Part shown: positions 14,704-60,800 of the stretch, piece by piece | Position numbering within the stretch: the stretch's first letter is position 1 | Layout of the letters: each line of letters starts with the position of its first letter | From: a virus | Direction: 5' to 3' (one strand) | IMG/VR virus record: IMGVR_UViG_3300045988_177309 | Span: 32,170 to 96,169 of that record | Length of the DNA: 64,000 bases | The notes under the pieces: generated by a model | Seen by the model: only the letters and a program-made list of their open reading frames with translations | Database searches by the model: none | What the model was told of the DNA's origin: nothing | Position numbers and translations under genes: made by a program

Positions 14704-15067
14704 ATTAACTAATTATGAAATACATACAAAAGCTTTGTCTTTTGATTGTTTAAAAAATAGTCCAGAATATTTTCCTGCGAAAATAATCTTTTATATACAA
14801 AAAAATATTAATCTTTTTAATTAGCTTGATATGGCAATAATTGCCGCGAAAGATTCAATCATTGAACATTATGGTATAGTCAATTCTGATTAGGGATTGA
14901 CTATACCTCAAGACAAACTTCCGATAGCTAATTAGGAATTAAATGAATTGATGTTTTTAAAACAAGAGTTAGATATTTCTTTGATACCTTTAAGTTGGAT
15001 TGAAGATATAAAATTTACTCCTGAGCAAATGTCAGTATTAGCTTTTATGATTGACGAAAATAAATAA
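14693..15067 (+). CDS. hypothetical protein (~124 aa, 3 in-frame TAG)
   Basis: The ATG overlaps the end of the previous gene (tATGaaaattga). Frame 2 is open to TAA at 15065-15067. Confidence 0.45.
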
Positions 15068-15092
15068 TATAGACAAGGAGGAAAAGGTGGAT

Positions 15093-21300: not shown

Positions 21301-23227
21301 TATTAATAATACTTGGTATGGAAGGTATTTTAAAAAAGGGTGGTATCGACATTCAAAATTAATTACTGGATCTACAAGCTATGTAACTAAGTTTAACTTT
21401 GGAATAAGCGTAGATACACCAAGCATTATTTGCATAGATGATATAATATTAATCGATTTAACAGAATCTTTTGGAGCTGGTAATGAACCTACAAGAGAAT
21501 GGTGCGATGAAAACATTCCCTTTTTTGAAAATGAATATATTTTTCATAAAATAAATAAACAAACAAAAATTGCTTCAACTCATAAATATTATATTGCAAC
21601 ACATTCTTATGCTTCTGCCACAATATTTAGAATTTTATAGGGCTTATATGCAAATGTTATTTCAGATCATAGCAAGGGATGGTTTCCGCAATTTAAAGAA
21701 TCAGAAGATTAGTTCCGATATGCGAATATTTTTATTTTAAAAGATTATGATGCACTTAAATTTATAATTACTACTTTATCTGAAAATGTTGATGGTGCTA
21801 ATGGCTTAGTCGCACCTTTTGTTATGATAGATTTAACTCGTAAGTATGGGTCAGGTCAAGAGCCCAGTTTAGATTGGTGCAATCAAAATATTCCATTTGA
21901 TGAAAATATTTATATTTTTGCTGATGCAGAGGAAGAAGAAGAGCTTGAACCTTTATATTATTATGCATTAAATGGTACATATAATACTGAATATACAGAG
22001 TATATAGATGGTCGAGAAGTCCATTTTTCAAATACATACGGTTTCTTTGCGCCAGAAAATGATAATCCTGGGATTAGTTTAATTATTGATGATAGCAATT
22101 TACTTAATGCGAAGAAAACCCACAATTGTTATATCTATCAAGATGTAAATATAGATGACAAATTTTTAAGATTAACTGAAGATAGTGTGTATGATTCTAA
22201 GAAAATCTATTATGAAAAAACTGACCATTATATTGATGGATATCATCAAACTTTTTCTGAATATACCGATATTTATGAATACGATGCTGTTCTTAAAGAA
22301 TATCTTGCGGTTATGAGTAAAGGAGCGAATGGTTTATATTCTTTCAGAAAAGATAGGGTAATATCTCCCTATTATCGTTATCCAGAAGTAAATCATACTA
22401 ATCCAAAAGATGATGAGGTGTGGGGCAGAAAAGATATTATTTTCTGCAAAATTACTAAAGGATATTATCTTAAAGAATCTACTGCAACTTTATCAGGATA
22501 TGAAATTGTGCCGACTGAATATAGTATTTATAAAGCAATTAAAACCGCGGAAGATTATGCGGCATAGCAAGCTTTAAAAAATGTGTTTGTTCAAGATGGA
22601 ATTGAAGATATTGTAATTTATGAACCTAAGAAAAATCGTTCATATTATACTAAAACTTGCCAATATTATAAGCCTATTGACGGCGTTGATAAATCATTAT
22701 ATTATTGGAATAAAAATGTAGTTAATGCTCCTGAAGTGCTAAACTATTGGTTAGATTTCTTAGATGGCGATGATTTAGAGAAGTATTCTATTAATATAGT
22801 TGGAGATAGGCCTAAAGCAATTAATGATGATAAGGTAACAGCCATCTATTATAGAGAAACTCCTACGGTGATTTTTTTAACTGATAAAAATTAGTACGAT
22901 GAACTAAAAGCGCGAGGAGAGATAAGGGACGGTTATAGTTATATATATTTAAATACTGAATATGAGAATATGTTTAGTATTAGCGCACAAGGCAAAGATG
23001 CCCATGCAGTGATAGACAATATGGTGTATAATTATTCCTATTGTGTTGAGTCTGTAACTGTAAATGCAATACCTATATATACATTAGAACCTAATACTTA
23101 GATTTCAATCTATGATGAAACAAGTAAAATTAATGGTTTGTATAATATTCAAACCTTAACAATACCATTAACTCATAATGGATTAATGAATATAAAAGCA
23201 ACTAAAGTGGTTGATCGAATTTATTAA
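18392..23227 (+). CDS. giant virion structural protein (~1611 aa), baseplate/fibre module; TAG-recoded
   Basis: The ATG overlaps the previous stop (taATG). Frame 2 is continuous through pieces 18392, 19613, 19946, 20936, 21824 and 22583, separated only by TAG. TAA lies at 23225-23227. Confidence 0.7.
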
Positions 23228-23617: not shown

Positions 23618-26600
23618 ATGAGTTTTTATGGTAAAGTGGTAAATTTAGACCGCGCTCAATTCAATTTTGATAAAATATACTCTAGCCGCTATGAGATGGA
23701 TCATAACATTAAAACTGATGGTATTTATGTAAATCGTTTGGTATTGGTGGAATATGACTCTGAGGGTAGCGACGATAGTTTTAAATCTTGTTATTTAGCA
23801 CCTGATGGTAAATTATATGCAAGTTTTAAGCAAAAAGAGGGCGCAAGTATTCAAGAAGTACTTGATGGTGCAGTTGAATTTCCTGCAGCGTATAAGTTAG
23901 AAGTTGTATCAAGCTCAACGGTAAGTTTAAATTATTGTCAAGTACGACAAGGTGATGTAGTGCGCGTTCCGGCGACTGTTATTGATAAAAATGGTAAAAT
24001 TATTGAACGCTTTAATTATAATACTTTAGCTAGTTCGCATGAACCCATTGATATTGGTACTCTTAATGGTTCTGTAACTCTTTATTATTAGGCTAAATTG
24101 GTAAATGGTCAATCTGAATTTACTATTTTAACAAGTGCGAATTCTGCTTATGTGCGTAATTATGCTTTAGATACTTCTATTTATGGTAAAGGACGCGGTT
24201 GGGATTCAACTGTTTGGTAGAAGGTTTATAAAGATAATAAAGAACAATATATAATGATTGCAGAACTTAATTCCACGATGCCAGCATTTGGCATTTCTAC
24301 GGATGCGCCAAGTATCGTGCCTACAGCCCCACACTTTGATACTGATAGCACTAATAAATTTTATTAGTTACATTGGCAACCTTCATGGGGATTAAGAGTA
24401 AAAGGTGCCGAACAATTTACTGGTCCAGTACTTGATGAAAATGGTAATAAAAGTGAATTATTTACTAGTTCTACTATTTTAACTAATGATGTAAAAGATT
24501 ATCCTTCTGACGAAGAGACTTCTTGGTCTCAAATTAAGATGGATACTGAAAATAATACAAGTCAAAAACAATATTTTAATATAGAAACTAAATAGTGGCA
24601 AAATGCAGAAAGTAAGATACCAGCCGCAATTTATTATAATAAGGCGGGTTTCGATCCTGAACATATTTCTTATGCTAATGAAAATATAACAGATAAAATT
24701 TCTGTTGAGCCTACTGGATATAGTGGTCATTTATATAACCAACATGATGGTACTAATCGTTTAGCAGTAAGCGAAGATACTCAAGAAATTAGTATTATGT
24801 TGCCTTCTCTTGGCAATACATTAGCTCATGTTTGGGATTTGGTTTATGGCTCAGAAGAATAGAATGGTTCTTTGAATCGTAATCTTAATATAAATTGGGA
24901 CAATAAAGATGGTTTACGGCTTGTAAATGTTAATCCAGAAGGCAATGGATATACTTATGATACTGATAAAGTTAATACTCTTGCAGGATGTATTAATTCA
25001 GTACATGATTTAATGGGTATGATTATTGTTGCTAATAATGACAATCATATTGATTTACAAGATTTTAATAATATTGATTTAGATAAAATATATTATCAAA
25101 ATCAAAAATATTATCGTATTCGTAAGACTGATTTAGTAAAAAAATACAAAGAAGGATTACTTACAACAGTTGTTTCTATTGATGGTAAGTATAATTTTAA
25201 GCCTGATCGTAATTATTATATTGTTTATTTAGAGGATGGCTCAAATGCGCAATTTGATAAAGATTAGGCTACTTATATTAATCAGCATTTTAAAGTGGGC
25301 CAAAAGTGGAACATTGAAATTGCTGATGTAATAGATGGTATAATTCTTGCGCCAGATATTATTGATGTAAAAATTAGTGATTAGACTAGTTTATCATATG
25401 TTTTTGAACCTGATAAAAAATATTATATTGTTGATGTTGGTACAAGTGGGTTAACGATCGGTTCTGCTTGGCTCATTAGTGATACTAAGGTGCGGCAAGG
25501 AATTGAGCTTGCGGCGAACGTAGCTGAAGTTGTTGAAGTGTCGCGTTATAATATGGTCACTGGTACTCAATATCAGATTTCTGCTTTAGAAGATATAGAT
25601 GATCTTTTAGAAAAATATGTAATTGGTGATATTTGGACTGAGGGAGATAAGGTAGTTCCTGGAGTTACATTATCTCAATATGTTGCGGCGACCGATTAGA
25701 AATTATATTATGATATGCAAGATGGCATTGATTATTATATAGCTAAAGAAATTGGTAGTGGTACTAGTCTTACTGAAGAGAAAATTCAAGAGCTGCAAAC
25801 TAAATATGGTTCCATATATGAAAATCATGAAGTTTGGCCTTATGGAGCTGAATTTATTGATGGTATTGTTTTGGGCTATTATGAAGAAGGTAGTACTGAA
25901 TTAACACTTATTGGTTCTAGTTATAAGCGCGAATGGATATTCCGTGATGGTGTTATTTATCAAATTACTCAAGTCGAAAATAGTGCTGGTATGTCAAATG
26001 AAGATTATGAGAAGTTTAAAAAGCAATATCAAGTTGGTCAAGTTTGGGATACCACTAATAAAACTTATATAGAAGGTTTAACTCTTGCAACTCCTCCTAT
26101 TAATGCACTTAATAGAAATGAATATATTTTAGAAGAAAGCATTAATTATCAAGTTGTGGGCTATGACTTAACTGGACTAAGCACTGATGAGCAGACCTCG
26201 CTAAAAGCTAATTATCCTCTTGGTAAAGCTTGGACAAGTATTGTCGCAATACCTGGCTTATTGATTGGTGAAAGCCGTGCCGCAACTAAAGAAATGTATT
26301 ACTATGAGTTCATTGATGGTGTTAATTATTATATTGAAGGTATTGATAATTCTAAGACTTATGATTAGATCTATACTATTGGATAGAAATGGGACACAGA
26401 TTATAAAACTGTTGTTGACGGTTTATCAATAATCGGCTAGTAGATGGGTTATGAATTTAGTGAATTGGTTGGTTTTGCTGATGGGTTAAATACTATTCAT
26501 GGATTAATTCTTAAATTAAATAGTTTATTAGAGATTGATAATGAAACGTCTCGTGACAATAAAACAGTTTAGGGTTGTATTAATTTGATGAATGATATTT

Positions 26601-28000
26601 TAAATACATTCGATACTCTTATTCCTAAATCATTATTAACAGTTGATTAGTTTGGTAAAATAATTAGTGCTAAGATTAATACTGATTAGACAAATAGTAT
26701 TAATTTTACTAAGGAACCCCCTAAAATAAATTGTTTTAGCAAAGACAGTGATGATATTATTAATAAAGATATTTATAAGTATGAACACAGTGACCCTGTT
26801 ATGATTGATAAGCAATGGATTACTGTTAATATTAACAATGATAAAAATAATAATATTCTAAGCATTCATCATAATTATCATAAACTTGAAGATATTAAAC
26901 CTTCATTAGAAAACAATCCTAATGCTTATGATCTTTATAATATGACTTATACTGATGATAAGTATAATGGAAGTATTTTATTGCGCGATTATCTTATTGA
27001 TGAAACTGGGCATGTTGTTGGTAAACAAAATAAGATTGCGCCGCTACCCACTCATTTTAAAGATATAATAATTAATAATTTAAATTATTAGCCTTACTTT
27101 AGCAGAATGCTTGAACTTTCTTATCAAGGTGCAATATTTAATCTTGATAATCCAAAAGTGATAGAAAATAAAGATGCTTTACTTGCAGCTTGGCTTGAAG
27201 AAAAAAATAGTGGTAATCTTACTGATACTGAATATAATTTATACCTGCGATGGATAGCTGAGTTTGAAAATAGTGTAACCGCACGAGGTGATAGCAATCC
27301 TTATGAAACTAGTCATCCGCGCGATATATTTACGGCAATTCCTGAGAATAGTATAATTTACAGTGCGCCAATTGCTGCTGAAGTGCCAGTGCGTGGCAGT
27401 ATGACCTTCGGTGGTTTACTTAAAACTACTTCAACATAGAAACCTTTAGAAATAACTTCAGTTAATAAATGGATTCAATTAAGGGGTGTATTTGTTCCTG
27501 TTGGAGGTAAGCGCGAACCGCACTATTATAATGAATTACTTTCTTTTGGAGCAACATTCACTGAAGGCACTTTAGAATTGACTAATGCAGCCGAATTAAT
27601 TTCTAAAGCAAATGCTTTGGCAGGTCCTGAAAAAACAATGTGGTTAAGTCGTATTCAAGAATATCAAAGCGATTGGACGTTACCACGTACTGTTAATGAC
27701 CAATTATAGGTTGCACATAAAATTTCTGTAGTTGATACAAGTGATAAGCCCAATACAGAAGAGCCTGTGTTGTATGATATAGAATATGATGAAGCTGGTC
27801 ATATCATTGGAAAGCATAAGTATACTAAAGGCATAAGTGCTGATGTTGGTTCAAGCACGGTTAAAGGTTATGCTAATGAAATTACCCATAGTATTATTGA
27901 GCCTACAGGCGAAGCTACTTTAAATAATTATATTAAACGTTTATGGAATAAAATAAATAGTTTAGAACAAAGAATTGCTGTTTTAGAAAGTAATACTTAA
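23618..28000 (+). CDS. giant fibre-like structural protein (~1460 aa) with a C-terminal coiled coil; TAG-recoded
   Basis: Frame 2 is continuous through pieces 23618, 24872, 25490, 25715, 26801, 27107 and 27767. It contains a tandem TAG TAG at 26438-26443. The C-terminus reads ...IKRLWNKINSLEQRIAVLESNT, and the gene ends with TAA at 27998-28000. Confidence 0.7.
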
Positions 28001-30864: not shown

Positions 30865-30931
30865 TTGATGATTGGACGAATTCCAATAAATAAATAAGTA
30901 TAATTTTTAATTTCCTTAGAGGAATAATAAA

Positions 30932-30967
30932 AGGGAAAGGGGCTTTTGTTCCTTTCCCCTTTTTTTA
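30932..30967 (+). terminator. rho-independent terminator
   Basis: Stem agggaaagg / cctttccct followed by TTTTTTT. Confidence 0.65.
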
Positions 30968-31005
30968 TTATGTTACGAAATGATAGAAAGGAGTTAAAAA
31001 ATATA

Positions 31006-34000
31006 ATGGCAACTGCATTTAGACCCGTCCGCACAACTAAAGATAGGCTAAATATTGAAAAATATAATGAAGGCTATATTTATATGGTAAAAGATAGCGG
31101 CCAAATTTTTATGGATGCTGATGGGAAACGTATATTATTAGGTAATAATGGTGTGTCATTATTTTATGGTACTGACGAAAAACCAGTAGAAGATCCAGAT
31201 TTAGAAACTGGTTATATTTTAGTATTAAGTAAAATAGAAAATTATGAAAATTGCCATGAAGGTGATTTAATTTTAAATAAAAACGATGGTGCTTTTTATC
31301 AAATATTAACTATTGATGAACCAAATGATTAGATATATTGTGCGCGTTTATCTATAAGTGGCGGTGGTGGAGGCAGTGGAGATAATCCTGGCGGTGGCCG
31401 CAATATGACTTTTAAAGTTGAAGGTTTAACACACTCTACTGTTATTAATGGTACAGAAGTTTCCACTTATGTGACTGCGACCGCAAAACAAGATGCCAAT
31501 GGTGATTATGAAGATGATGTTTTAACCATTAATTGGGCTTTATATGAAGGCATTAAAGATGAAGGCACTCCTTATATGCGCGGTACATTTGAAGTTAATA
31601 ATGGCGAAAGGACACAATTTGAATTTGGTAAACGATTAAAAGCTAATACCACGAGTTCATTGTGGATGACCGCTTCCGGTGTTAATAGTGGTATTTCTAT
31701 AAAACGTAATATTCAAGTTACGACTGTTGATTTGATTCTTAGCCGCAGTTCCAAATTTTCACCTTTAACTTTATATAGTTCTACGGTTAAACCTATTATG
31801 TATTGTAACGTGTCTGGCGCAATTACTAAACAATTATTATTTTATGTAGATAATGAATTGGTAAATGAGCAGATATTAGATTATAATAATAATGGTGAAA
31901 AATCTTATACAATAAATACCGCAACATTAGAGCATGGCACTCATATAGCTCGTTTTGAATTATATTCTTATGAAAATAACAAACAAGGTGCTGGCCCAGA
32001 ACCTATTGAATTTGAATTTGCTTATAATAGTGGCTCAAATAATTTGCCAATTATTTGGATTGGTTCTTATAAGAATGAATACTATAATTATGATAAAATT
32101 CAAATTCCTTTCTTGGCTTATGATCCAAAAGTTCCAACCAATACAATTGTTAATTTTTATAAAGATGCAAAAATACTTGAATCTAAACAGTAGGTAATAA
32201 ATTTTACTTCTACTTCAGAATATAAAATTTTTGAAATTACTGATGTTACTACCGATGAAGAAAATCTTTACTATATTTCTTGTGGTGAAGGCGAACGTGA
32301 AGTGCGCCGCGAAATCGCATTTAACGTAAAGACTGATCCTAATCGTGATATGAACATCATTGCTGAAAACTTAATGCTTTCATTTGACGCAACTGGCCGC
32401 TCAAACAGTGAGTCGGCCGCAAATCGTGAAAAATGGCAGTATAACGATTATAAAGCAACTTTTGAAAACTTTAACTGGTATAATAATGGTTGGCTCCTAG
32501 ATGAAAATAATAACACTTGTTTACGTATAAGTAATGGGGCGAAGTTTTCAATTCCTATTGGCCCAATGACATTAAATTCTAATGTTAGTGGTATTAAAAA
32601 ATGTACCTTTGAATTTCAATTTAAAGTTAAGAATATTAGTAATTATAATAAATTAATTAAAGAAATTACTCGTTATTCTGACGACTAGGCTGCTTATGAT
32701 GCATTTCTTGCACAAGATAAGTATGATAATTATGATGCCTTCTTACATGATAAAGCATTAGAACTGTTAGGCAAAGAATATGATGATTTAGTCTTTAGTC
32801 AAGTTTATAAATAGATATCCACGGCAAATGCATTTTGTAAGTACATTACTGGCACTACTGGATTGTGTTTAGGACCATAGGGTGCTTTTTTTAGTGACGG
32901 TACTGATACTGTTAATGTGGCCTATGTTGAAAATTAGTTAGTTAATTTAAGTATTGTATTCTCTCCTAATTCTAATTTAATTTTAATTTATATTAATGGT
33001 GTTTTAACGGGGGTTAATAAGATTACAGTGGACAGTGCAGTTAATATCACAAGTTCAGCTATTGAATTTAATTCAAGCAATTGTGATATTGATTTATATA
33101 AAGTGCGTGTTTACTCTGAAAGCTTAGATCTATTAAATATTTTAAAGAATTATGCCGTTGATTTTAAGGATGTTTTAATTTATGATCAAAATAGCATTGC
33201 TTCTCTTGACACTAGTGTTGGTAATGAGCCTAGACTGCGCTATGAAGACATGATTCTTTATAATCAGACTCATCCTGATGATTATTTAATGCCTTATTTG
33301 ATTTTTGATGTAACTAATACTTCGTTGAAGAATATGCCTTATAAAAAAGCAGTTAAGGTTAATGGTGCAACCATTACTTTTGTTAATACTGGTTTAGATA
33401 GGGCTTATGAAAATGGCGAGTTACTTACTAAAATTAAAGAGGATAAAGAAATCGCTGGCATTCTTGCTGAATAGGGTGAAATTGCGGCAATTGAAGAATA
33501 TTATAAACATCATTGTCCAAGCTTCACTTCTACTGCCTATGAAGATTTAAATAATACTGGCGTAACGCTTTAGGTTCAAGGCACTTCTTCTGAATTCTAT
33601 CCTCGTCGCAATTATAAAATAAAAACTAAGGGTTCAGATAAGAATATCAATATGTATATGAATGCTGGGCCTTTTAAAAGTGCTTATAAAAATAAAGAAG
33701 ATAAGTGCCATCTTGATGCATTCTATTATGATAACTATACGGTAGGTACTACTAAATTTACTGTAAAGATTGATTATATGGAATCTTCCGGTACTTATAA
33801 TATGGGTATGGCTAATTTTGTTGCTAATGCCTATACAAAACATCCTATTAATGATTATAATAGTGTTGGCGCTTTTACTGAATCAAAAGAAAATTATGAA
33901 GTTGCAACCTCTTATGATGAAAACGCCACCTATTATGAACTAAATGAGGCTGGTAAATATAAGAAATTAACCGATCAAACTATTGTAAATGCTGAAAATG

Positions 34001-37000
34001 TTGGTAATTATTATATTGCAGTTACCACTTATAAAGCATATGATTGGCCGAATATAAAAGATTATCGCACCAGTGTACAAGGTTTTCCCGTATTAGGTTT
34101 CTGCAAAAATGGAGAAACCTATACATTTTTAGGTCGCTTCAATCTACTTTTGGATAAAGGTTCAGATGAAGCTTATGGATTTAAACCCAGTGAAAAAATA
34201 AGCCAAAAATTTTTAGGTAATAAAGCCGTACGTAAAATGACTGAGTGCTGGGAATTCTCAGATAATGGCCGCACATTCTGCTCATTCAGAGATCCTTTAA
34301 AGCGTAAAGAATTCAGTTTTAGTATGACTCAAGATGAAATGCGTCGCGCTGGAATGAATACTGAAGGCCTTGTGTTTAATGGCAATGAGCGCGCAAACTC
34401 TAAGGGTTGTGGCCCAATAGTAACGGATAGCTACGAATATCGTTATCATACTGATTCTGATCTTTTGGATTATATTTATGATATAACTGGTGGCGGTGTA
34501 ACTACTGAAGATTTGGCTGATGGTGGTTATGCTCCCGAAGAATATTCTACTCCTGAGAATAGAAATGCCTCTTTGTTTAAGAAGATGAAAAACTGGGAAC
34601 GTGCTTGTAAATGGGTTTGGAGTACTTGTGTTGATTATGTTGGTAAAGAAGACGATTTAATTAATAAGTATGCGATAAAACAATATGGCAAAAATGCTAC
34701 ATTCGTTCATACTAAAAAATATTCTGCGGCAAAAATTCCTACTGTTGAAGAGACAATTTTATTTAATCCAACAGAAGTAACAATGGCTTATGATAACGTT
34801 AAGAATAATTTAATTCAAGCCGGATTAACTGAAGATATTTTAAAGAGCGCTGAATGGGGTACTGTTGATGGCACTGATAGTAGCGGCAATATTATTTATA
34901 CATTTTCTGATAGTGATGTATTCCGCGCTTATGCTAAAATTACTGGTTATGTTTATGTACAAGATCTTGATAAAGTTGGTACTTATTAGACTGGTACAGT
35001 TGAAGCTTATACCAATGTATTTAATACAATTAAACAAACTCCTGAAGATTATGCAACTGATAATATTGAAGTTCTTAATCCCGCAGTTACCATTAATAGC
35101 GTTACTCATTATTTTGATACTCAAGAATATCGTTTAGCCAAATTTAAGAAAGAGCTTCCTGAACACTTCGATTTAGAATATTGCTTAGTGTATTTCTTAA
35201 TTACAGAAATTTTCCTTTGCTATGATAGTCGTGGAAAGAACTGTATGATGGCGTCCTGGGGTCCGCAAAAAGAAGGTGGCGATTATATTTGGTATCCTAT
35301 TTTTTATGATATGGATACGCAGTTGGGTATTAATAATACTGGTATTCCTTCTTTCGAGTATTATGTAAATGCCCAAGAAGAAGGTTGTTTCTCTACTAAT
35401 GATAGCGTATTATGGGCAAATCTTTATACTTGTTTTAAAGATGCTTTAAAAGCTAAGTATTTCCAGATGCGCGGGGATGGTAGTGGTATTATAAACATTA
35501 ATACTAAAAAAGCTACCACTCCTTTGCTTGGTTCTTCTACTGGCGATAATGACACTCGTTCGGCATTGCAGCGTGATGTTGACCATATTGAAAAATGGTA
35601 TTTAGCTGACCCTGACGAATGTGACTCTATTGCGATGAGAGGTATTCGTCCTTTAATGGCTTTAAATTTAGATGAGTATTGGAAGTATATTTCTATTACT
35701 AATGCCGCAGGTGATGGTTATCAAAATCAAGATGGCGATAAAGCGATTGATGGCGATGGCACTTATTTCTATGCTTTGCAGGGCGACCGCAGTTTATCAC
35801 GTTAGCAATTCTTAATGAATCGTATTAATTTTTATGATTCAGTCCAAGGCTGGGGCGAATATGCGCGTGCAGGTACCTCAATACAAGGTCGTATTATTGC
35901 TAATGATATAAATCAAACTTCTGATAAATATATTGATAATAATACTACTACATTACCAGATGGATTTGTATATTCACCATATTATGTTATGGAAAATGGT
36001 GTTGAAAAGAAAGATGCCAATGGCAATCCTATTAAAACCAATTATTTAGATGCCGATTTGGCAGTCAAAATAATTCCTTATCAACGTCAATATGTTACTA
36101 TTGGCGGTGATAATAGTTCAATGGAACCGTAGTTATATAAGGGCGATAAAGCTGTTTATATGCAACTTCCTGGTAATATGCCTATTGGACGTCGTAGCGG
36201 TGCTAAATATGGCGAACAATTGTTTTATATTTATGGCGCGAGCTTCTTACAAGATATTGGTGATATGAGTACTCTTTATTGGCGTGAATTCAAAGCATTA
36301 GGTGCGTCACGTTTATAGAGATTATTACTTGGTTCAGAATATCCTGGATATTTCTTAAAGACTAATCCGCCCAGTTTTGATGCTTCCAAGAATAGCGCAA
36401 AAGGTAAGCCAATGTTAAAAGAAGTAAATCTTACTGGTGTATTTATTGAAAATGTGCAAACATTAGACTTCTCCAGTAGTGAAAAATTACAATCTTTCCG
36501 CGCAGTACGTTCTAATATTTAGAATATTGTATTCGCGGAAGGGGTTGCACTTAACACTTTACATATACCTAAAACATTAACAAATCTTAATTTAGTTGAA
36601 GCTTCGCAATTGAAAGGTTTGGTTACTTCTTATGAAGCACCTACAGAAGAGAATTTCTCTACTTGGACTCCTCCTGTAGGATTATATATTGAAGATTTAA
36701 CTAATAATTTAGATACTGCGACTGAAACTGGTTTGAATGTGTTAAGCATTAATGGTGATTACTTTGGTTATGATAGTTATAAATTATTAAAAGCTTTAAC
36801 TCGTATTAAGCTTTAGCCAAACCAAGGACAGCTTTAGATATCATTGCGTGGTGTAAATTGGATGCCTTATGAAAAATTAACAGAAGGTTATACTTATAAT
36901 GCTTCTGAAGAATATTATAAGGATAATGGTCACTATGGTTTAGACGCTTGGACTTGGGATGCCGCAGAATGGGATAGTTTGCTTATTGATGGTAAATTAT

Positions 37001-38535
37001 TCAAGAAAGTTATCAATAAGTATGAATCTATTGTTGACATAAACATGTTAAAGGATTATATTGAAAAATATAGCTCTATTTTTAAGGGTACGGCTACCGC
37101 AATGCCTGAGATTACTGGTTATATCTATATTGAAAATAGTGATATAATTGATGAAGGCTATATCCGCAATACTTTATAGAACAATAATTATTATCCTAAC
37201 CTTAATTTCTTCTTTAAGAATGTAAAGCCCGGTTATTCTGGCACATTTTTATAGATAGATGAAGATGGTAAGAAAAATGTTGTTGGTATATAGAAGATTG
37301 CTGCGGATGATTTTGAATCTAATACTATTGTACGATTCTCTAATCCTTATACTATTTATACTCCAAAACCAAAGCCAAACTATGACTTCCTTGGTTGGGC
37401 AACTGATGCCGCAGGTGAAAATATAATTACTAATGAAGCTTGGGAAGAATGGTCTTGTACACAAGGTGTTATGGATTATACCTTCTATGCTATTTATATT
37501 AAACATAAATATAAGATGTTTTTCTATAATGATGATGATACATTAATTGATGAGATAGAGGTTACTTACAATGAGAAGCTTTATCCTCCTACGATCGTTC
37601 CTCATAAAGATGAATCAACATTGCCATTAGAAAGCACTTATAAACATGTTGGTTATTCGACTAGTAAGGGCGGTCGTAAAGTTGATTTAGAGTCTATGCG
37701 CTCAATCAAAGATTATAAGTTCTATGCGGTTTATGAAATTGCTAATGTTTATGATGCTCCATTTGATGAAAAATTCTTTGATTTCACTTCTGGAACATAT
37801 CATGAACAAAGTGGTTACTATATTAGTGTTAAATCTGGGTATTCATTATCTGGTAAAGTAACATTGCCAACTCGTTATAATAATCAACCTGTTATTGGTA
37901 TATTGGGAGCTTCAAGTCAATCAGACAGTAGTTTTGTTAATGGCTTTAGAAATAATAATGATATTACTCATATTTTCTGGTATAAAGACTCTGCTGGAAT
38001 GAATATAATTGATTTTGCAATGCGCTGTTTTGAAGGAATGGGTTCATTACAATATATTGAAATTCCTGGCACTATAGAGCGCTTTGGAGCTTATTGTATG
38101 GCTTCAATCCGTAAGAATAATGAGGTTAATGTACCAGTATTAAAGTTAAATCGTATTGATATTAATCCTGATAAGATTTGTCGTTTTGATGCTTATGCAT
38201 TTAGTGGTTCGCCAGTTGATAATGAATCATTTACAATTACAGGCCGCTTTGATTTTATTGGTAATCAGGCATTTGCTTATCAAACAAAAATATCAACTTT
38301 TAATTTCGGTGATGCAGAAAAAGGCTGTTATATTACTAGTATGCGTAGCAGCAATTAGTATTATCAGGTACTTCGTTAGAATCCTTCTGATCGTACTATT
38401 ACAACAGTAAATATGTATTCTGACCAAGAAAATATTAACAAATATAGTGCGCCTGAATCTGACGACTATCTGCCCAATCTTACTGGTCTTACTACTGCTA
38501 GTGTTAATGTTACTTATAATTATACAGTTATATAA
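31006..38535 (+). CDS. giant multi-domain fibre/adhesin-like protein (~2509 aa) with a C-terminal BspA-type leucine-rich-repeat region; TAG-recoded
   Basis: The ATG at 31006 follows the ribosome-binding site GAAAGGAG. Frame 1 is continuous through 11 ORF-track pieces (30946 to 37471), separated only by TAG. TAA lies at 38533-38535. The N-terminus shares the fibre N-domain. The C-terminal ~300 aa carry a repeating I.IP..V..IG..AF pattern like LRR_5/BspA. Confidence 0.7.
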
Positions 38536-52803: not shown

Positions 52804-53325
52804 TTACTCCTTTTCAATATTTTCTATAGATATGATATCATATTTTTTGCGTAAAGTCAAATCTATTATTCTTTGATTAGAACTTCCGCGCATAGGAAGA
52901 GTAATATCGCGCAATTCATCTATATAAGGGCCATCTATTAAATAATCTATAGTATGCAATATATACTTTATTTTATAATCAGAGAAGTCCTTTAATTCTT
53001 CATATGTATATCCAGTCCAAACATAAATTTTTATATAAGGCATACGTTTTTTAACTTCTTTAATAACTAAAGTAGTTAAAAAAAGATTTTCTGGGCAAAG
53101 AGGCTCTCCTCCCATGATACAAAAATTATGTTGTATGCCATGCGCCATTAAAGCTTCACATATATCATCTATTACTTTTGGAGTAAATTCTTTGCCACCA
53201 TTAAAGTCCCAAGTCTCAGGATTTTGACAATTCAAACAATGATGAGGACAGCCCTAGGTAAAAAAGCTTACGCTTAAACCTGGAGCCGCAGCCAAATCTT
53301 CTTTTATAATTCCTGCGTATTGCAT
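52804..53325 (-). CDS. nrdG: anaerobic ribonucleotide reductase activating protein (~173 aa; 1 in-frame TAG)
   Basis: ORF 52804..53235 continues upstream through TAG to the ATG at ~53325, giving MQYAGIIKEDLAAAPGLSVSFFT-(TAG)-GCPHHCLNCQNPETWD. FF-Q-GC...C..C.NP is the radical-SAM activase (PflA/NrdG) signature. Confidence 0.8.
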
Positions 53326-53356: not shown

Positions 53357-54304
53357 TCATTCTAAATTACCAGCGTGTTTTACGCGTGCTTCAACTTCAG
53401 CTTGCTTGCCTTTATTAAAGGCTGACTTGTAGTCGCCAGTAAGATAGCCTGTCACACGTCGAAGTTGCTGTATATTATGACTATGGCATTCGGGGCATTC
53501 ATCATTAAATTCATCAGTATATCCACAATCTAAGCAAGTATCATTTGGAACATTAATAGCAAAGTAAGGAATATCTTTATCCATTGCATAATTTACTATT
53601 TGTTCTAATGCATCCAAATTATTTTTTACCGAAGAGTCTAATTCGATATAGGTAATACATCCAGCATTACTATATCCAGTAAGTTGACTTTCAAGATCGA
53701 TTTTATCAAAAACATCAATCTTTTCCCAAACTGGAATGTGTATAGAATTGGTGAAATATTCATGATCACTAACCTTGGGAATAACTCCATATTTTATTTT
53801 AAACTTTTTCATGGCTGTATAACATAAATTTTCAGCAGGAGAAAAATATACACCAAAATTAAGTTTATATTTTTCTTTAAATTCAGCGCAACGAGTTTTA
53901 AAAAGTTGTTCTATACGTTTAGCCAATTCCATTCCCTTTGGATTGGTATGATTGCAACCAATTAATAATTCTAAAGTCTCCGCGAGACCAAGTTGACCTA
54001 TAACGAGCGTACCATGCTTTAATGCACTCCTTATGCCTTCTTCCGGCTTATATCCTGCCATTAGCCCATTTTCATACATAAATTTGGCACTATCAGGACT
54101 TTGTGAACAAATCCATTCAAAACGTTCAAGAAGCATATCTTTTGCTTCATGAATTTTAGTATCCAAAAGAGCCATAAACTCTCCAACATTTCTACCTGCT
54201 TCCATAGCCAAAGTGGGCAATATAATTGTAACAGGGCAAATATTTCCACGGCCATCTTTTTGCTGACCAAGGCCATTGATATCCATGCCATTAGATGTTC
54301 TACA
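53357..54304 (-). CDS. nrdD: anaerobic ribonucleoside-triphosphate reductase, exon 3 (C-terminal part with Zn ribbon and glycyl-radical motif)
   Basis: Contains ...CRTSNGMDINGLGQ...GNICPVTIILP...CLDCGY...CPECHS...RRVTGYLTGDY... The exon start was placed at the Cys codon that completes the conserved MGCR-like junction. Confidence 0.8.
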   Translation of the reverse strand, partial: CRTSNGMDINGLGQQKDGRGNICPVTIILPTLAMEAGRNVGEFMALLDTKIHEAKDMLLERFEWICSQSPDSAKFMYENGLMAGYKPEEGIRSALKHGTLVIGQLGLAETLELLIGCNHTNPKGMELAKRIEQLFKTRCAEFKEKYKLNFGVYFSPAENLCYTAMKKFKIKYGVIPKVSDHEYFTNSIHIPVWEKIDVFDKIDLESQLTGYSNAGCITYIELDSSVKNNLDALEQIVNYAMDKDIPYFAINVPNDTCLDCGYTDEFNDECPECHSHNIQQLRRVTGYLTGDYKSAFNKGKQAEVEARVKHAGNLE

Positions 54305-54817
54305 CGTATAATTCCAATATCCCTATTGGTACTGACTATATCTTCAATTCTTTTTTGAATTGTCTTCCGCTTCGAGCGAGTGCTTATCTCTCACCCTACT
54401 CCCTTACATTCATCAGGGATAGTCGATACAGATTTTTAAATATTATAAATGAAATTCTACTTCTCCATAATCACCAGTACAATATCGAACAATATTCTCT
54501 TCAGGAATTGTATATTCTTTAATTGTGCAATTTTCATTTACGCCAAGCTCTTTAGAAAAATATTTTTCTAAATATTCAAGAGAAATGCAGCCATACAAAG
54601 TATTAGGAGGATTTTTGATAGAGCACTCAGGGTCAAATCTACAAATGCCTTGTAGAGTAAACCAAGGTCCCCCGCCATCTTCTTTTTCATATCTGTAAAC
54701 TTTTATCATAATATTTAAACTTTCCACGGTCTCATCTGTTCTAGACCTAACCGTTAGCAGCATTATCAATGCCACACCTGCGAGCGCAGTTCAAAAGATT
54801 TTAAATGAGCTGAGTTT
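54305..54817 (-). mobile_element. group I intron 2 in nrdD (~513 nt)
   Basis: It separates the exon ending ...TYFSTMG from the exon starting CRTSNG... Its 3' core carries CGACTATCC...GGAGTAGGG, elements shared with intron 1. Confidence 0.6.
54443..54775 (-). CDS. intron-borne ORF of unknown function (110 aa, GTG start)
   Basis: Lies inside nrdD intron 2 and has no recognisable nuclease motif. Confidence 0.3.
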   Translation of the reverse strand: MALIMLLTVRSRTDETVESLNIMIKVYRYEKEDGGGPWFTLQGICRFDPECSIKNPPNTLYGCISLEYLEKYFSKELGVNENCTIKEYTIPEENIVRYCTGDYGEVEFHL

Positions 54818-55078
54818 TCACTTACCCATTGTTGAAAAATATGTCCGTGGATCTAAGCGGTCATATCCTTCATTACCGCTCCAATCTACATTAGCATAAT
54901 TAGGATAAAGTCTTGTTGAAGTAGACTTTAATGCTAATTTAAATAAATCATAATTAGGATCACCAGGTTCACGATTTACTCCTCGCATACATTGGAAAAT
55001 GCCGCAAGGAAAAATTGAAGTTCTATGATGTTTACCAGTACCTTCAATAGATACTTCAAGCATTGCTTTTGTAATCAT
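54818..55078 (-). CDS. nrdD: anaerobic ribonucleoside-triphosphate reductase, exon 2
   Basis: Contains ...GKHHRTSIFPCGIFQCMRGVN...LYPNYAN...TYFSTMG. The true 5' exon boundary is probably slightly inside this ORF. Confidence 0.7.
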   Translation of the reverse strand: MITKAMLEVSIEGTGKHHRTSIFPCGIFQCMRGVNREPGDPNYDLFKLALKSTSTRLYPNYANVDWSGNEGYDRLDPRTYFSTMGK

Positions 55079-56164
55079 ACGCCCTTCTGGAAGAGTGCAA
55101 GTGCCGTAGTTAACGCTCGTAAAAGGTAATTGGTTTCCACTTCGACTTTGTAAAGTATTCCTTTAATATTCAACTGAGTTCGTTAATCTCAGCCCGATAA
55201 AATAAGTCGATGATTTTATCTGCTATATGTCGCCATATAGAATAGACTATATCTTCATCCTCTATCGAGGAGCCTATCATTTCGATTTAAGGGGTTCTCA
55301 CCCACCACTTGGCCCTACTCCTGTAGACGAATTTCACGTCCTATATGGATAGTCGTTAGGCATTTAATAATATGTGTGTTTGTTCTTCTGTTGCGTATTG
55401 GAAATGATATCCACCAGTTGTTTCCAATCTTTGTCCTTTACAAACTTTAGAAATATTTGTAGCATAAAGATTTAGTTGTCTAGCACATTCTTGTATTGAC
55501 TCATAAACAGTATCTAATTCAACACAATATACCGGTTTTTTATCTTTTTTAGCAGCAATAATATGTTGGCGTTTTTCTTCCGAACAAGAGCCTGTTGATT
55601 TTCCTCTTTTTGCTTCAGAAATGTGTTGTTTATGTTCTTCGGTAAATTTTTTTCCTTTTAAAGCTAATCGAATTTTTTCTTTAGTCTCTTCTGAGCATGG
55701 ATGTGCGCCATTGGTATTATTTTTCATATTATTGGAAAGTTTTTGTCTTGCTTCTTCTGACATAATCGTCATTTCTCCGCCAGTTGTTAAATTATATCCA
55801 TTTGGAGACAAAGAATTAAACTTTTTAATGTAATATTGCTCTTTTTCACAAGCCTCATCTTTAGTAAGGTTAGTTTCTAATATCTTGTGTTCAAAGTTAT
55901 CCCAACCATATTTTTGAATAGCTGCATAAAATTTTGGACTCGTTGAATATTTTTGACCATTTAATCCCCAGCGTTCTTCTGGTTTTCTTTTCGTTATTCC
56001 AATATATTGTTTTCCATTTATTTTATTTATATGCTGATAAACTAAATAACATTCTTCCATATAAGCTACCTCCTTTCCTTAAAAAATTCACATATTATAT
56101 TTAGCACGGGATTGTCTACTTGAAATTTTCCCCGTTTAGATAGGTTAGGTTCTTAATATTACTA
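55079..56164 (-). mobile_element. group I intron 1 in nrdD (~1.1 kb) carrying a GIY-YIG homing endonuclease gene
   Basis: Exon 1 runs into the TAA at 56165-56167. The intron contains an ORF with its own ribosome-binding site. Its 3' core carries CGACTATCC...GGAGTAGGG, matching intron 2. Confidence 0.7.
55356..56060 (-). CDS. GIY-YIG homing endonuclease (I-TevI-like), intron-encoded; contains no TAG
   Basis: Starts VYQHINKINGKQYIGITKRKPEERW and contains NGYNLTTGG. Ribosome-binding site AAGGAAAGGAGG. Confidence 0.8.
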   Translation of the reverse strand: MEECYLVYQHINKINGKQYIGITKRKPEERWGLNGQKYSTSPKFYAAIQKYGWDNFEHKILETNLTKDEACEKEQYYIKKFNSLSPNGYNLTTGGEMTIMSEEARQKLSNNMKNNTNGAHPCSEETKEKIRLALKGKKFTEEHKQHISEAKRGKSTGSCSEEKRQHIIAAKKDKKPVYCVELDTVYESIQECARQLNLYATNISKVCKGQRLETTGGYHFQYATEEQTHILLNA

Positions 56165-57136
56165 TTAAGCCGCCCAAATACTTAGGTTATGGTAAAGACC
56201 TTCGACCGCTTGGTGAACTTCACGAACAGTCATATCCATAGCATATTTATAAGCTTTATCAAAATCTCCAGAATCATCTACTTTATTTGGATAAGCTGAA
56301 TAATCATTAATTGGAATATCTATAATTTTTTTATAGATATCACTATCCTCTAAATAATTATCTAAATTCCAATTACAATTACATAAATACTTCATACCAT
56401 CACGATAATGCTTATAAAAAGATTTACGCACATAAGGAACCATAGTCCAATCAAGATGGGTCGCACTTACGCCACCAAATTGCTGAAGACTCTAAAGCTG
56501 AAAAATTACTGCGACAAGTTGCATTGCAGTATTTACAGAACCTGCAGGGCGCACATCTGCTTGCCGAGTTGTAAATCCATTTGCGAGAAGATCATCGAAT
56601 GGAACGCTTAAGCAATTATGGCTACCAACAAAGTATGCATCTAGATCATGAATGTAAATTTCATTATTTAAATGATTATTTTTTGCCATTGAAGATACTA
56701 TATAATCAAGAGCTAGTGTACGTGTTACTAAACTTGCAGCTTCACCAGTACGACCGCCGAAAGAACGTTCATCAACATTGGCATTTTGATTTTGAACATC
56801 ATCGGCTTGAAGCTTTTCTTTAATAGCTTCAATAAACTCATTTTTATATTTTCTTGCGGTTTCTTGCTTATATCTAAAACGTATATAGGCTCTTGCAACA
56901 TCAGGTCGCTCAGAACGCATCAAATATTCTTCGACCCAATCTTGTATATTTTCTACAGAAATATTTTTTTCTTTGGATAACTTTTGAGCCTTTTTTTCTA
57001 TGTCATTTGCAATATCAATAGCAGTATCAAGTTCATAAACCTGGCCATCAACTTCTAAAAAAGCTTTTAAGATAGCTGCAACAATTTTAGTCTTATCAAA
57101 AGGAACTTGAGTGCCATCTCTTTTTATTATATACAT
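56165..57136 (-). CDS. nrdD: anaerobic ribonucleoside-triphosphate reductase, exon 1 (ATP-cone plus N-terminal catalytic region; 1 in-frame TAG)
   Basis: ATG at ~57136 with ribosome-binding site AAGGAG gives MYIIKRDGTQVPFDK (ATP-cone). ORFs 56492..57223 and 56165..56443 are in one frame, joined by the TAG at 56492-56494, reading ...AVIFQL-Q-SLQQFGG... Confidence 0.8.
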
Positions 57137-57219: not shown

Positions 57220-57810
57220 TCAATTTTCTTTTGTGCCAAATTCAGAAATTTTTTGTTTCATTATTGAAAGAGCTTTTTTATAGTCTTCAGTAGTATCATT
57301 TTTAAGCACTACACACTGTTCTAAAAATTCATCTTCAAAAGAAGCAAAATCTAATCTATCACTTTGATAACGTCGCACAATTTCATTAACGTCGGGGTCA
57401 ATTTCTCGATTTAGTTGCCGTAACAAACGAATTTTATCAGTGCTAGTTTTAATATAAAAAATCAATAAATCAACATTAGGATGAGAAAGAATTGCACGAA
57501 TTGCATCAGGGTCAAATACTCCAATATTAATATTAGTTACACGTAAACTATCATAACTAGTGCCGTAACACCAATTATTAAAAACAGTTGCTTCAATAAA
57601 TTCATCATTTAAAAGCTTTTCCGCAAATAGTTCAGGTATAATAAAATAATAATTTAATCCATCTACTTCCTTATCCCTCTTGGGTCGAGTGGTTGTTCTT
57701 ATAATTTCATGATAAGAAGGATTATTTTCTATAAATTTATGAAGCAGAAAGTCTTTTCCACTTCCTGCTTCACCACAAAGAGCAACAATTTTATACTTAG
57801 GCAGTTTCAC
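57220..57810 (-). CDS. gmk: guanylate kinase-like nucleoside monophosphate kinase (196 aa)
   Basis: Contains GEAGSGKDF (P-loop) and IRTTTRPKRDKEVDGLNYYFI (guanylate-kinase signature). No TAG. Confidence 0.7.
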   Translation of the reverse strand: MKLPKYKIVALCGEAGSGKDFLLHKFIENNPSYHEIIRTTTRPKRDKEVDGLNYYFIIPELFAEKLLNDEFIEATVFNNWCYGTSYDSLRVTNINIGVFDPDAIRAILSHPNVDLLIFYIKTSTDKIRLLRQLNREIDPDVNEIVRRYQSDRLDFASFEDEFLEQCVVLKNDTTEDYKKALSIMKQKISEFGTKEN

Positions 57811-60800
57811 TACTATACCTCTCGCTTATCAAATTAATTTCTCCTTTATCATTAATTGAATCAATTTTATAAAGAGTATGGCCAGGAGTTGAATTATATT
57901 TTTTAACCAAAAAAATATCATCAATCCTCACTCCAGTAACAACAATCATGCTGCCGCGATTAAACCAACCTTTTTCCTTTACATGTTTACAACCATCAGC
58001 TCCACGTTCGGAAATTTGTTTGTCAAATAACGCAAAAAATTCTTTACGAAATTTTAGTTCAACAACGCCAGAAGTAGTTAACAGTGTAACGGTACTTTTT
58101 GTTTTATTCTTTGCAATACAAGTACCACAAATACGTGATAATTTGAATAAAGGAATTTCACGGCCATTACGCTTAAAAGTCTTATCTACTATTGGAGTGG
58201 TAGGTAATTTTGCAAAATCACTAATTCCATATTTAGTGATGGGTAAATGCGCTAATTCATGTTCATGATAATAGAAACATAAAACTTCCATTTCCCAAGC
58301 AGAAATTGTACCTTGAGCATAATTTTTCCAATCTTCTACAAAAATAATTTTATTAAGGGAATTTAAAACTTCATTCTGGTTTTTAGTAATATAATCTCTA
58401 ACTACATTCATTTCGGATTGATAAAATTTATCCCAGAGTAAAGTATTTATAATAAATTGTCCGCAATATTCAACTGCATTAAAAGAAATAACACCTATAT
58501 CATGCAGCTCATTAATAAAATTAATTGCTCTATCATCTAAAATATAAAATTCAACTTGTTTATTAACAATTCGCAATGTTATTTTTTTACAGACTTTTTT
58601 CAAATATCTTGTAAATTCATAAACTCGGCTTGCTAAAACTATTGAATCGTCTTTTGGAAGTATATCATATTTAATAAGACTGGCCATATTTTGCAAAGTA
58701 ATACGGTTTTTCTTATCACAGGTTTGCCATATGTACCAAGCCATTGCAAACTTCCTATTTTCCATTGAATCAAAAGCACCGCTTTTAATTAATGAAACCA
58801 TCGCGCGACGGCCAATTTTTACCTTTGCAAGAAAATCTTTTATTGAAACGTAGGGGCGATTATTAATTATATCTTGTACTATATCATCACCAACATTTAG
58901 AATACCTTTAAGACCGAAAAGAATTTGATTATTTTCAATGTCTGGCGCAAATCCAAAAGCTGAACGATTAATGTCTGCAAGACTTACTTTAATTCCCGCA
59001 CTTTGGATATCACCAATTGCGCGGGCTATTTTCCCATAATCGGTGGCAGCTCTGCGACGCTTTTTCTTACCACTGCGGTCAGGCAAATCTTCATATTCAT
59101 ATTCTGAAAAATCTTCAGGCTCATATATATTTACAATTTCTTCTTCTTCTGGAAGTTGTTCCAAGCTGCCACTATTAACTATTAAACATGCAGTATCCCA
59201 ATAAATAGGGTTAAAATTAATAGCGAGATAAATCATTTGTATACCAACAAATGAATAGGGGAGCGAATGATTCAGTGAGAACGCATAACCTAGGGACGGC
59301 GCCACCACGACCTCCCACACGTATTCGGCAACCCTAACATCATCAAATCGTGAAAAGAGTTGCTCTTTAAGTGCGGGGATTTTATCCATTTGTTTTTTGG
59401 CGACAACCTTCCTAGCAGCATTAGACTCAGCCAATGAAAATCCAGCAACGTCCATCAAAATTTCCATCATTTGTTCCTGCAAGGCGCAGCAACCATAATA
59501 TCTATCACAATGTTTGTGGAGTTTTTGAATTATATCTTCAGGAAGATTGTGTTGTCGCATTTCATCATCAAAAGCTTTAATGCCAGCTTTTTGAATACGA
59601 CAATATCTATCTTGCTGACTTTCCTGGCCCTTTTCACTCATTAACCTCATTAATGCGTTTGCGGCAGTCATCTCAATAGGATCTTGAGGTTTAAGCTTTT
59701 TCGCAACTGCCAAACCCACTCCGGTGGAAAACTGAAATACATCAAGCACATCTCCTGCACTCAGATGATCCCAGATGCGCTGATCTTTTGTATTAAGCAC
59801 TTCTGGATGTAAATATTGGTTATAAAAATCTCTTAATCCCATTTGTGGAATTTCATTATACTTACTCAGAAGATTGTAGCACTGGATAATTTTATCACAG
59901 GCTTCAGTTACAAGGAAGTCATACTTGACATCACCGGCGCTTTCAGCCCGATGGAGATCATAACATGTAATCAATTCGCCACTAGGCGCGCGCATTACAC
60001 TTGCAGTTTCAAAAATATGATTTTTATCATAAAGAATAACGCCAGAAGCATGAATGGTTCTTTTATTTACTACACCTTCTATATTAAGCATAATATCTAA
60101 AAGACCTGGGTATTGTTCTACCTCATGAATAAAAGGCTTTACCGGAGCTCTATCCTCTTCAGGATTGCCATAAATAACATCTTTTAGGGGCCATAAAAAT
60201 CCTCGATGTTGAGGTATAAGCGAACTCATATACTGAGCTGTGTCAACATCAATGCCTTCAGGAAAATCTTCAGTACGATAACCACGGCATGCGGTCAGAA
60301 TTGCAGACTTCGTGCCCTCTGTACCGAAGGCTGCAACTTGAACCAAACCGTATTCTCCACGCTCCTTACGAATCGCTTCGAAGATAGCCGGTCGGCGCGA
60401 GGGGGCTAGATCTATATCGATGTCTGGAAGTTCAACGCGCTCGAGGTTCAGGAACCGCCAATACTATAAACCCCATCTTACGGGTTCAAGTTGAGTAATA
60501 CCCAATAAATAATTCGACAAAAAGCCCGTAGCGCTACCTCGGCCAGGGCCAACAATTGATCCACATTCCCAAAATAAATCAATATAATGCTTAAAAGTGT
60601 TAAAATATGCAAAAAGACAATCATGCAATTTATTTCCAATAGTCAAAATTACGTTGGCCTCTGTTTCAAGCCTTTCATAATAAATCTTATCAGTTAATTT
60701 TTTTTCATGCATCGCCATAACGCACTCATTTACCCAAGCTCTTTCTTGCAGGTTTTCACTCATAAAGAGCTGATGCAAAATAGGATATTCTTCACATTGA

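Follow-up and report, generated by a model that had tools for sequence, protein, structure and literature searches.

Among the ribonucleotide reductase (RNR) genes of phages, nrdD is the one most often found split (PMC3653736). Group I introns fragment nrdD in 95 of the 104 genomes of gut Jug phages, for which metatranscriptomes show splicing (PMC12880540), and introns of the IA2 subgroup account for more than half of the group I introns of viruses (PMC11835236). Several group I introns at conserved catalytic RNR positions, often with HNH or GIY-YIG genes, are also present in Twort nrdE, SPbeta bnrdE/bnrdF and Brochothrix A9. Here, we describe the nrdD gene of a 64,000-nucleotide stretch of virus DNA (positions 32,170 to 96,169 of IMG/VR record IMGVR_UViG_3300045988_177309; hereafter, the window), whose source is a stop-codon-recoded gut phage with relatives of about 160-200 kb. 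Judged from its sequence, this nrdD is one gene in three exons, with two T4-type group I introns between them. Split nrdD genes are already documented in gut phages, and the finding is real but ordinary. All features lie on the minus strand unless stated otherwise, and a caret marks a splice site.

The initial annotation had recognized NrdD homology in three blocks, and this was borne out from end to end. Exon 1 (56184-57136) begins with the ATG at 57136, encodes the ATP-cone and the N-terminal catalytic part, and ends in ...CAT AAC CT. Exon 2 (54824-55160) runs from G AAT ACT to ACA ATG GGT, so that the middle block does end with ...TYFSTMG, at 54824. Exon 3 (53357-54304), the C-terminal block CRTSNG, starts at 54304 with TGT AGA, contains the catalytic Cys, the Zn ribbon and the glycyl-radical motif as had been described, and terminates with a TGA stop at 53359-53357. 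Exon ends were set from colinearity with NrdD homologues together with the group I splice-site rule; alignment with intron-less nrdD sequences, a check that had been suggested earlier, fixed the splice sites and left the junctions colinear. By conceptual splicing, the three joined exons form a multiple of three and encode 745 amino acids with a single internal TAG (codon 215, 56492-56494), read as Gln, a position occupied by CAA or CAG in 79 of 83 homologues; apart from this recoded TAG the exons have no stops, and they have no frameshifts. The spliced product matches Pfam NRDD at 1.4e-148 (residues 118-740, profile positions 2-562 of 562), and also Pfam ATP-cone and Gly_radical. It aligns over residues 3-743 with PDB entry 8p23, a solved NrdD, gap-free at both junctions (...EGLYHNL^NTLQSRSGNQLPF... 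and ...YFSTMG^CRTSNG...), and it displays the class III RNR hallmarks ATP-cone, NRDD domain with the MGCR Cys, CxxC...CxxC and RVTGY.

The sequences flanking the exons are not compatible with translation of the separate pieces. Read past exon 1, the nrdD frame reaches a stop after 5 codons (...SIWAA and stop), and past exon 2 it does so after 1 codon (...MGK and stop). Moreover, exon 2 has an in-frame stop one codon upstream and no start codon for its conserved first 27 residues, and exon 3 has zero in-frame starts between the stop that precedes it and its Cys codon. These in-frame stops and missing starts indicate that the nrdD pieces are neither inteins nor independently translatable. NrdD homology (NTLQSRSGNQLPFTSVNYGTCTLPEGR) extends 82 nt upstream of the ATG earlier taken as the start of the middle block; the limits first given for the first gap, 56164-55079, relied on ORF (open reading frame) ends and are replaced here by those of intron 1 (56183-55161), while 54305 stands as the end of the second gap. 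The latter, previously put at ~0.5 kb, measures 519 nt (54823-54305) and contains an intact 88-amino-acid ORF that had been left unmentioned.

Intron 2 (54305-54823, 519 nt) is a group I intron of a large and very widespread, nrdD-specific family. It is preceded by U54824, has G54305 as its last base, and is positioned exactly between the Gly and catalytic Cys codons (MG^CR). Its helices are P1 (54830-54824 with 54810-54804), P3 (54798-54793 with 54368-54363), P4 (54753-54749 with 54731-54727), P5 (54746-54734), P6 (54726-54723 with 54432-54429), P6a (54716-54708 with 54446-54438), P7 (54424-54419 with 54339-54334), P7.1 (54418-54401), P7.2 (54396-54374), P8 (54362-54345) and P9 (54329-54314), with two extra hairpins, A (54789-54778) and B (54773-54759). 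The family was gathered by two pattern scans of IMG/VR, which returned more than 80 loci at the same place, ATGGGT^TGY (AGA or CGN), with over 70 distinct family members among viral contigs, some with an ORF (about 680-1135 nt) and some without (243-355 nt); 68 distinct sequences form the core set. Over these 68 cores, the 66 proposed pairs are 97.8% canonical as compared to 82.6 +/- 0.3% in column-preserving shuffles, both-sided changes occur in 35 of the 66 pairs, and 0 of 500 shuffles reached either the observed canonical share or the both-sided count. Exon position -7 covaries with the guide base that follows GCUCAU (C-G 27, G-C 18, A-U 15, U-A 3), which demonstrates P1 across the exon-intron boundary for this family. 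At that boundary, the Gly codon is GGT in all 67 scorable cores, 66 of which pair the U with G; intron-less alleles use GGT, GGC, GGA and GGG for the same Gly. The terminal G was a search condition during extraction of the family and, hence, is no independent test. Pairs are 96% canonical in P7.1 and 99% in P7.2, with 18 extra pair types, and in the alignment of the 3' domain pairing reaches 97.3% (32-40% in slid controls), with a covariation of 0.513 versus 0.174 in shuffled alignments (0 of 500 reaching it). An earlier version of P7.2, with GGGUG/CACUC plus a CGCU/AGCG mini-hairpin, was superseded by GGGUGAG/CUCGCUC once the family alignment was available.

The hairpins between P3 and P4 (window 54759-54789; loci L091-L216) are 90% and 93% canonical, respectively, and supported by covariation. 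Hairpin B is fully variable in sequence across the family, and in loci L105 and L151 it encloses a small ORF (MFSYIQYFP...).

Intron 1 (55161-56183, 1023 nt), preceded by U56184 and ending with G55161, is a td-like group I intron of IA2 type. The helices assigned to it are P1 (56186-56182 with 56177-56173), P2 (56169-56152), P3 (56144-56139 with 55278-55273), P4 (56135-56130 with 56111-56106), P6a (56098-56089 with 55376-55367), P7 (55354-55349 with 55250-55245), P8 (55272-55257), P9 (55240-55223) and P9.2 (55192-55174). DNA patterns specific to intron 1 had zero matches in viral contigs, and its seven relatives, all in nrdD at the same site, were found through the endonuclease protein that it encodes. 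The alignment thus comprises nine sequences, namely the ORF-less core of the window, the seven relatives and T4 td, and in it P1, P2, P3, P4, P5, P6/P6a, P7, P7.1, P7.2, P8, P9 and P9.2 could be matched one-to-one. Canonical pairs amount to 98% in P1, 92% in P2, 100% in P3 and P4, 91% in P6a, 100% in P7 and P9 and 96% in P9.2, with 6-69% in slid controls; less clean are P8 (77%) and, although at 100%, the outer stem of P7.1, which has 3 bp. Many pairs change on both sides, as seen for P3 (CCUAUC/GAUAGG, CUGUC/GGCAG, UUACC/GGUAA) and P7 (GACUAU/AUAGUC versus GACCAU/AUGGUC), and the relatives have pairs in P7.1/P7.2 of the kind CTCC/GGAG and CCAC/GTGG, or GAGTC/GACTC and GAATC/GATTC. The -1 pair in P1 is U.G in 9 of 9 sequences (U56184.G in the window), and every family member ends in G. 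A 5' site after AGT, with a 5-bp P1 formed with GCUUA, was rejected: it would add a Ser absent from every homologue, collide with the covarying P2 and spoil the td-like spacing. In a blastn search of the locus against phage genomes, the 3' core matched introns of SPbeta bnrdF and of Staphylococcus, Bacillus and T4-like phages.

The relationship of both introns to the T4 type was also evaluated with a covariance model of the 3' domain, R1, whose seed comprised T4 sunY, T4 td and 19 metagenomic sequences, with none from the window. On both strands of the whole 64-kb window, R1 has exactly two matches, one in intron 2 (54430-54305, 131 bits, E 8.6e-28), whose end coincides with the predicted 3' splice site, and the other in the P7-P9 domain of intron 1 (55360-55215, 37 bits, E 1.6e-6). 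The group I core helices P3, P4 and P7 are 100% canonical in intron 1, and the proposed pairs of the intron 2 family are 97-98% canonical overall. Members of the IA2 subgroup, in the classification of Michel and Westhof, have two additional helices, P7.1 and P7.2, located between P7 and the 3' strand of P3, and the presence of both pairings in intron 2 and in the relatives of intron 1 supports assignment of the two introns to the T4 (IA2-like) type. The motifs that the initial annotation had noticed in the 3' regions of both gaps, CGACTATCC (55355-55347 and 54425-54417) and GGAGTAGGG (55321-55313 and 54402-54394), are indeed shared, and correspond to P7 and to the start of P7.1/P7.2. Overall, homology, the U/G rule at the splice sites, covariation and R1 agree with the earlier proposal of two group I introns in nrdD, one of them with a GIY-YIG gene.

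The gene in question occupies the P6a loop of intron 1 (55356-56060) and encodes a protein of 234 amino acids. Its strong Shine-Dalgarno sequence, AAGGAGG, lies at 56075-56069, so that an intact GIY-YIG gene with its own ribosome-binding site was correctly placed in the first gap; its last codons (LNA and stop) fall within the 3' strands of P6a/P6. Pfam finds GIY-YIG (35 bits, cutoff 22.6), NUMOD3 and an I-HmuI-like NUMOD in the protein, which matches PHROG 314 'homing endonuclease' (3e-46) and shares 34% identity with I-TevI in the N-terminal, catalytic domain. The protein has 1572 homologues at E<=1e-10, and all eight contexts fetched for such homologues are in nrdD, at the intron 1 site. 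Its domains and location indicate a GIY-YIG homing endonuclease, with predicted activity and target.

Mobility of the introns is suggested by the distribution of the insertions among related contigs. The 80 best IMG/VR relatives of the nrdD product (67-74% amino acid identity) are all uninterrupted, with YHN[L]NT[L] and [ST]MGCR[TS] read through, and the case of homologues carrying these segments as protein-coding insertions, once raised as a way to refute the introns, was not seen among them. Contig L218 has intron 1 and lacks intron 2, its DNA joining the equivalent of window position 54824 directly to that of 54304, and contig L217 has both introns, with intron 2 free of an ORF, 41 nt taking the place of 285. 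Contig L085 is 87-91% identical in nucleotide sequence to the window in dnaE and in the genes on the nrdG side, while the NrdD proteins share just 34%; yet L085 carries intron 2 at 96.7% nucleotide identity and between the same two codons, and the guide-proximal base has changed so as to fit the different exon of L085. A near-identical intron 2 in nrdD genes whose products are 34% identical bears the signature of a mobile element.

Intron 1 is absent from L085, in which a third intron, td-like, interrupts nrdD further downstream. Further nrdD introns of the relatives are found in L085 (6037-7140), L088 and L220-L222. A td-like one is inserted at SYH^VPV and contains an ORF of 198 or 234 amino acids; the equivalent site of the window, at about 53760 in exon 3 (SIH^IPV), has no intron. 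Another nrdD intron of the relatives, at yet another site, holds an HNH_3/NUMOD1 ORF. Within this one phage group, introns occupy four or more nrdD positions, two of them 4 nt apart beside the catalytic Cys. The DnaE-type polymerase gene of L085 has a 1.17-kb insertion (460-1629) with a 272-amino-acid GIY-YIG ORF, and an intein as well (Pfam Intein_splicing/LAGLIDADG); the polymerase gene of the window is without that insertion at the corresponding point (59272-59298).

The 88-amino-acid ORF (54443-54709) fills the loop that the 9-bp P6a of intron 2 closes, and does not encode a homing endonuclease. Its close homologues form one cluster (92%), found only in L085-type contigs, and a full HMMER scan added about 56 small phage proteins of 85-100 amino acids with 35-53% identity and the motif YRYE..DGGGP. 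The family consists of free-standing genes; one placeable relative is an ordinary gene with a large gene on either side and carries the label PF26820 Phage_T4_Y00F. The AlphaFold model computed with the family alignment is confident (predicted local distance difference test, pLDDT, 91.9) and weakly resembles ADP-ribosyltransferase/RES-toxin folds; no conserved catalytic Glu was found across the family alignment. Between the window and L085 the ORF has 13 changes, with codon differences that are synonymous in 5 cases and conservative non-synonymous in 7, as opposed to 2 differences in the parts of the ribozyme outside loop L1, which makes the RNA the more constrained part of intron 2. The ORF is, by its sequence features, a non-endonuclease passenger, for which any role would be conjectural. 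In most of the intron 2 relatives inspected, the same loop holds an endonuclease-like ORF, and since this has been replaced by an unrelated gene, the intron 2 copy of the window is probably unable to home by itself.

Taken together, we consider it very probable that nrdD gives rise to a single pre-mRNA with two self-removing T4-type group I ribozymes, the removal of which restores a class III RNR of 745 amino acids. According to this proposal, nrdD would be transcribed as one pre-mRNA, and both ribozymes would excise by two guanosine-started transesterifications. The 5' splice site of intron 2 would be chosen by a 7-bp P1, in which the exon NAUGGGU pairs with the internal guide GCUCAUN'. Removal of intron 1 would join ...CAUAACCU to GAAUACU..., and that of intron 2 would join ...ACAAUGGGU to UGUAGAAC...; the exon-exon junctions would then be CATAACCT-GAATACTT and ACAATGGGT-TGTAGAAC, and spliced reads across 56184/55160 and 54824/54304 would be expected to contain CATAACCTGAATAC and CAATGGGTGTAGAAC. 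In addition, the GIY-YIG gene, translated from its own ribosome-binding site, would supply an endonuclease that cuts nrdD alleles without the intron near HNL^NT and thereby drives homing of intron 1 during co-infection.

Several observations weigh against this proposal. Splicing in vivo is inferred from DNA and from homology to T4 td and sunY. In intron 1 of the window, P7.1/P7.2 are interrupted by insertions with no assigned fold, and P1 is short (5 bp, only 3 of them with exon bases); moving the 5' site 4 nt downstream also allows a 5-bp P1. As for intron 2, we know of no described group I peripheral element between P3 and P4, where its two hairpins are located. Finally, the Rfam search for group I introns that had been recommended for both gaps was negative: there was no match on the window at the gathering threshold, nor at E<=10 on the 4-kb region, and RF00028 did not match an intron 2 relative without an ORF at E<=0.1, whereas it gave 105 bits for the uninterrupted core of the T4 nrdD (sunY) intron. 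Other controls, however, showed how insensitive this search is: T4 td, an experimentally proven intron whose P6a likewise holds the ORF, was also unmatched by RF00028, and SPbeta bnrdF appeared as two sub-threshold pieces of 42 and 37 bits (cutoff 50). With td missed and bnrdF below threshold, the negative Rfam result is uninformative here.

The same evidence allows the competing explanations to be judged. Phage RNR genes that are split and lack splicing elements do exist (PMC3653736), and gene callers report separate ORFs both here and in the relatives, as would be the case for a truly split nrdD, in which three separately translated fragments assemble, the endonuclease is free-standing and nothing is spliced, as in nrdA/mobE of Aeromonas phage Aeh1. 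Yet conserved coding sequence reaches both predicted 3' splice sites, just upstream of which the frame has a stop but lacks a start codon, the second break would part the Gly from the catalytic Cys, and a full ribozyme core under covariation in both introns would be pointless without splicing; we hold such an arrangement to be very unlikely. Inteins or domain insertions, removed or kept at the protein level, are known in RNR genes in the former case, and a relative of the phage has an intein in dnaE. Nevertheless, protein-coding insertions are refuted by the reading frames, in which stops come 5 codons past exon 1 and 1 codon past exon 2, and they fit neither the lack of any intein Pfam match nor the 80 of 80 close homologues without these segments, so that we give them practically no weight.

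A third explanation would be that the introns have decayed and no longer splice, leaving nrdD as a pseudogene. It could draw on the loss of the usual endonuclease gene from intron 2 and on the failure of Rfam to recognize either core. Against it, the exons are free of frameshifts and of stops bar the recoded TAG, all core helices are intact, R1 gives the 3' domain of intron 2 its 131 bits, and the comparison with the L085 copy, with 2 differences in the ribozyme outside L1 and 13 in the ORF, is not that of a relic; decay is thus very unlikely. Removal of two functional group I introns from one nrdD transcript remains our preferred explanation.

The genome that surrounds nrdD uses TAG as a sense codon, as TAG readthrough doubles the ORF content of the window. 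Under readthrough, giant ORFs of 1113-3147 amino acids with 13-45 in-frame TAGs each emerge on the plus strand (e.g., 1034-10477, 10540-14703, 15051-18392, 18374-23227, 23618-28000 and 30931-38535), while the replication genes on the minus strand have 0-5 in-frame TAGs each; no tRNA genes were found in the 64-kb window. The initial annotation had stressed that the endonuclease gene, unlike its host gene, has no TAG. There is indeed no in-frame TAG in it, and this is statistically not meaningful, because the gene has only ~13 Gln codons and nrdD has just one TAG in its 745 codons. A missing TAG as a regulatory signal was accordingly rejected as not significant. The reverse case has been described in the TGA-recoded Agate phages, in which an intron endonuclease is preferentially recoded (bioRxiv 10.1101/2021.08.26.457843).

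The gene order around nrdD is the same in every relative fetched. Downstream, nrdD is adjoined by nrdG, the radical S-adenosylmethionine (SAM) activase gene (52804-53325), with one in-frame TAG near its start; the ORF 53235-52804 is the counterpart of the radical-SAM activase called in relatives. Upstream are a guanylate-kinase-like P-loop gene (57220-57810) and the DnaE-type polymerase gene.

In practical terms, the two introns and the recoded TAG cause this nrdD to be split into at least four ORFs by standard gene calling, and recognizing the introns restores one intact enzyme; public annotations of relatives are broken likewise, as in phage TR-TP1. The locus is a further case of a phage RNR gene serving as a hot spot where self-splicing elements occupy catalytic residues. 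The intron 2 family, missed by Rfam, could seed a better model. The element is of a known mobile type, in a gene where it is common, and what is known about the mechanism of group I introns is unchanged.

When compared to the described systems, each of the two introns is closer to a T4 intron than to the other. The ORF-less core of intron 1 is 82% identical to T4 td and that of intron 2 is 79% identical to sunY, while the two window introns, at 70%, are the most distant pair. Intron 1 corresponds to T4 td with I-TevI helix by helix from P1 to P9.2, with the same sequences in P7, J6/7 and P4-P6, and in both introns the P6a loop houses a GIY-YIG ORF whose stop falls within the 3' strand of P6/P6a (INA and stop in I-TevI). 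The host gene of td is thymidylate synthase and not nrdD, and the sequences of P1/guide, P2, P3, P6a, P8 and P9 differ through compensatory changes. Moreover, intron 1 has extra hairpins inside P7.1 and P7.2 that td lacks, and the C-terminal DNA-binding part of its endonuclease (NUMOD3 plus I-HmuI-like) is unrelated to that of I-TevI.

The T4 nrdD (sunY) intron with I-TevII has the same host gene, and the intron 2 core is closest to it, with an identical 33-nt stretch over P7-P7.1 (CGACTATCCCTGATGAATGTAAGGGAGTAGGGT). The T4 sunY-like arrangement first proposed for the locus is, therefore, only loosely right, as host gene and intron 2 core agree with sunY, and insertion site, ORF loop and intron number do not. 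T4 nrdD has one intron and the window nrdD has two. The T4 site (gag t^at gaa) is, in the aligned proteins, 7 nt upstream of the intron 1 site (AAC CT^G AAT), where the ribozyme is of td type, and the sunY-like ribozyme of the window is inserted at MG^CR, about 112 codons downstream. The ORF of the T4 intron is located in the 3' part, after P9, whereas the ORF slot of intron 2 is P6a. We take the T4 loop to be P9.1. Intron 2 also differs from sunY by its two extra P3-P4 hairpins, by the lack of P9.1/P9.2 and by its non-endonuclease ORF. The sunY guide is GCUCAUG (exon UAUGAGU; L004 2100-2135) and that of the intron 2 family is GCUCAUN (exon NAUGGGU; window 54804-54830), which makes the guides practically identical; the two exon sites share AUGRGU at two different nrdD positions. 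One guide serving two nrdD sites would fit guide-directed, reverse-splicing-like relocation rather than endonuclease homing, and a sunY-type ribozyme may have relocated in this manner, with which the shared guide is compatible. Because an intact, conserved non-endonuclease gene sits in the endonuclease loop of intron 2, the intron could also be regarded as a vehicle for accessory genes. That intron 2 is more than a routine homing intron, combining an accessory-gene vehicle, guide-directed relocation and novel P3-P4 hairpins, is a tentative idea that we consider rather doubtful.

Among the systems found in gut phages, the Jug phages represent a lineage different from that of the TAG-recoded phage of the window. 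The closest nrdD of a cultured phage, at 73% nucleotide identity, is that of the Thomasclavelia phages TR-TP1 and TR-TP2 (PQ571309/PQ571310). As in the window, the gene is interrupted beside the catalytic Cys codon, in this case by a td-like intron. Unlike in the window, this is the single intron of the gene; it contains an HNH gene and interrupts AT^G GGT TGT, 4 nt upstream of where intron 2 is inserted, and there is no intron at site 1. For TR-TP1 (L001, PQ571309; 4018-4907), the published annotation has two NrdD coding sequences and an HNH endonuclease, and no intron.

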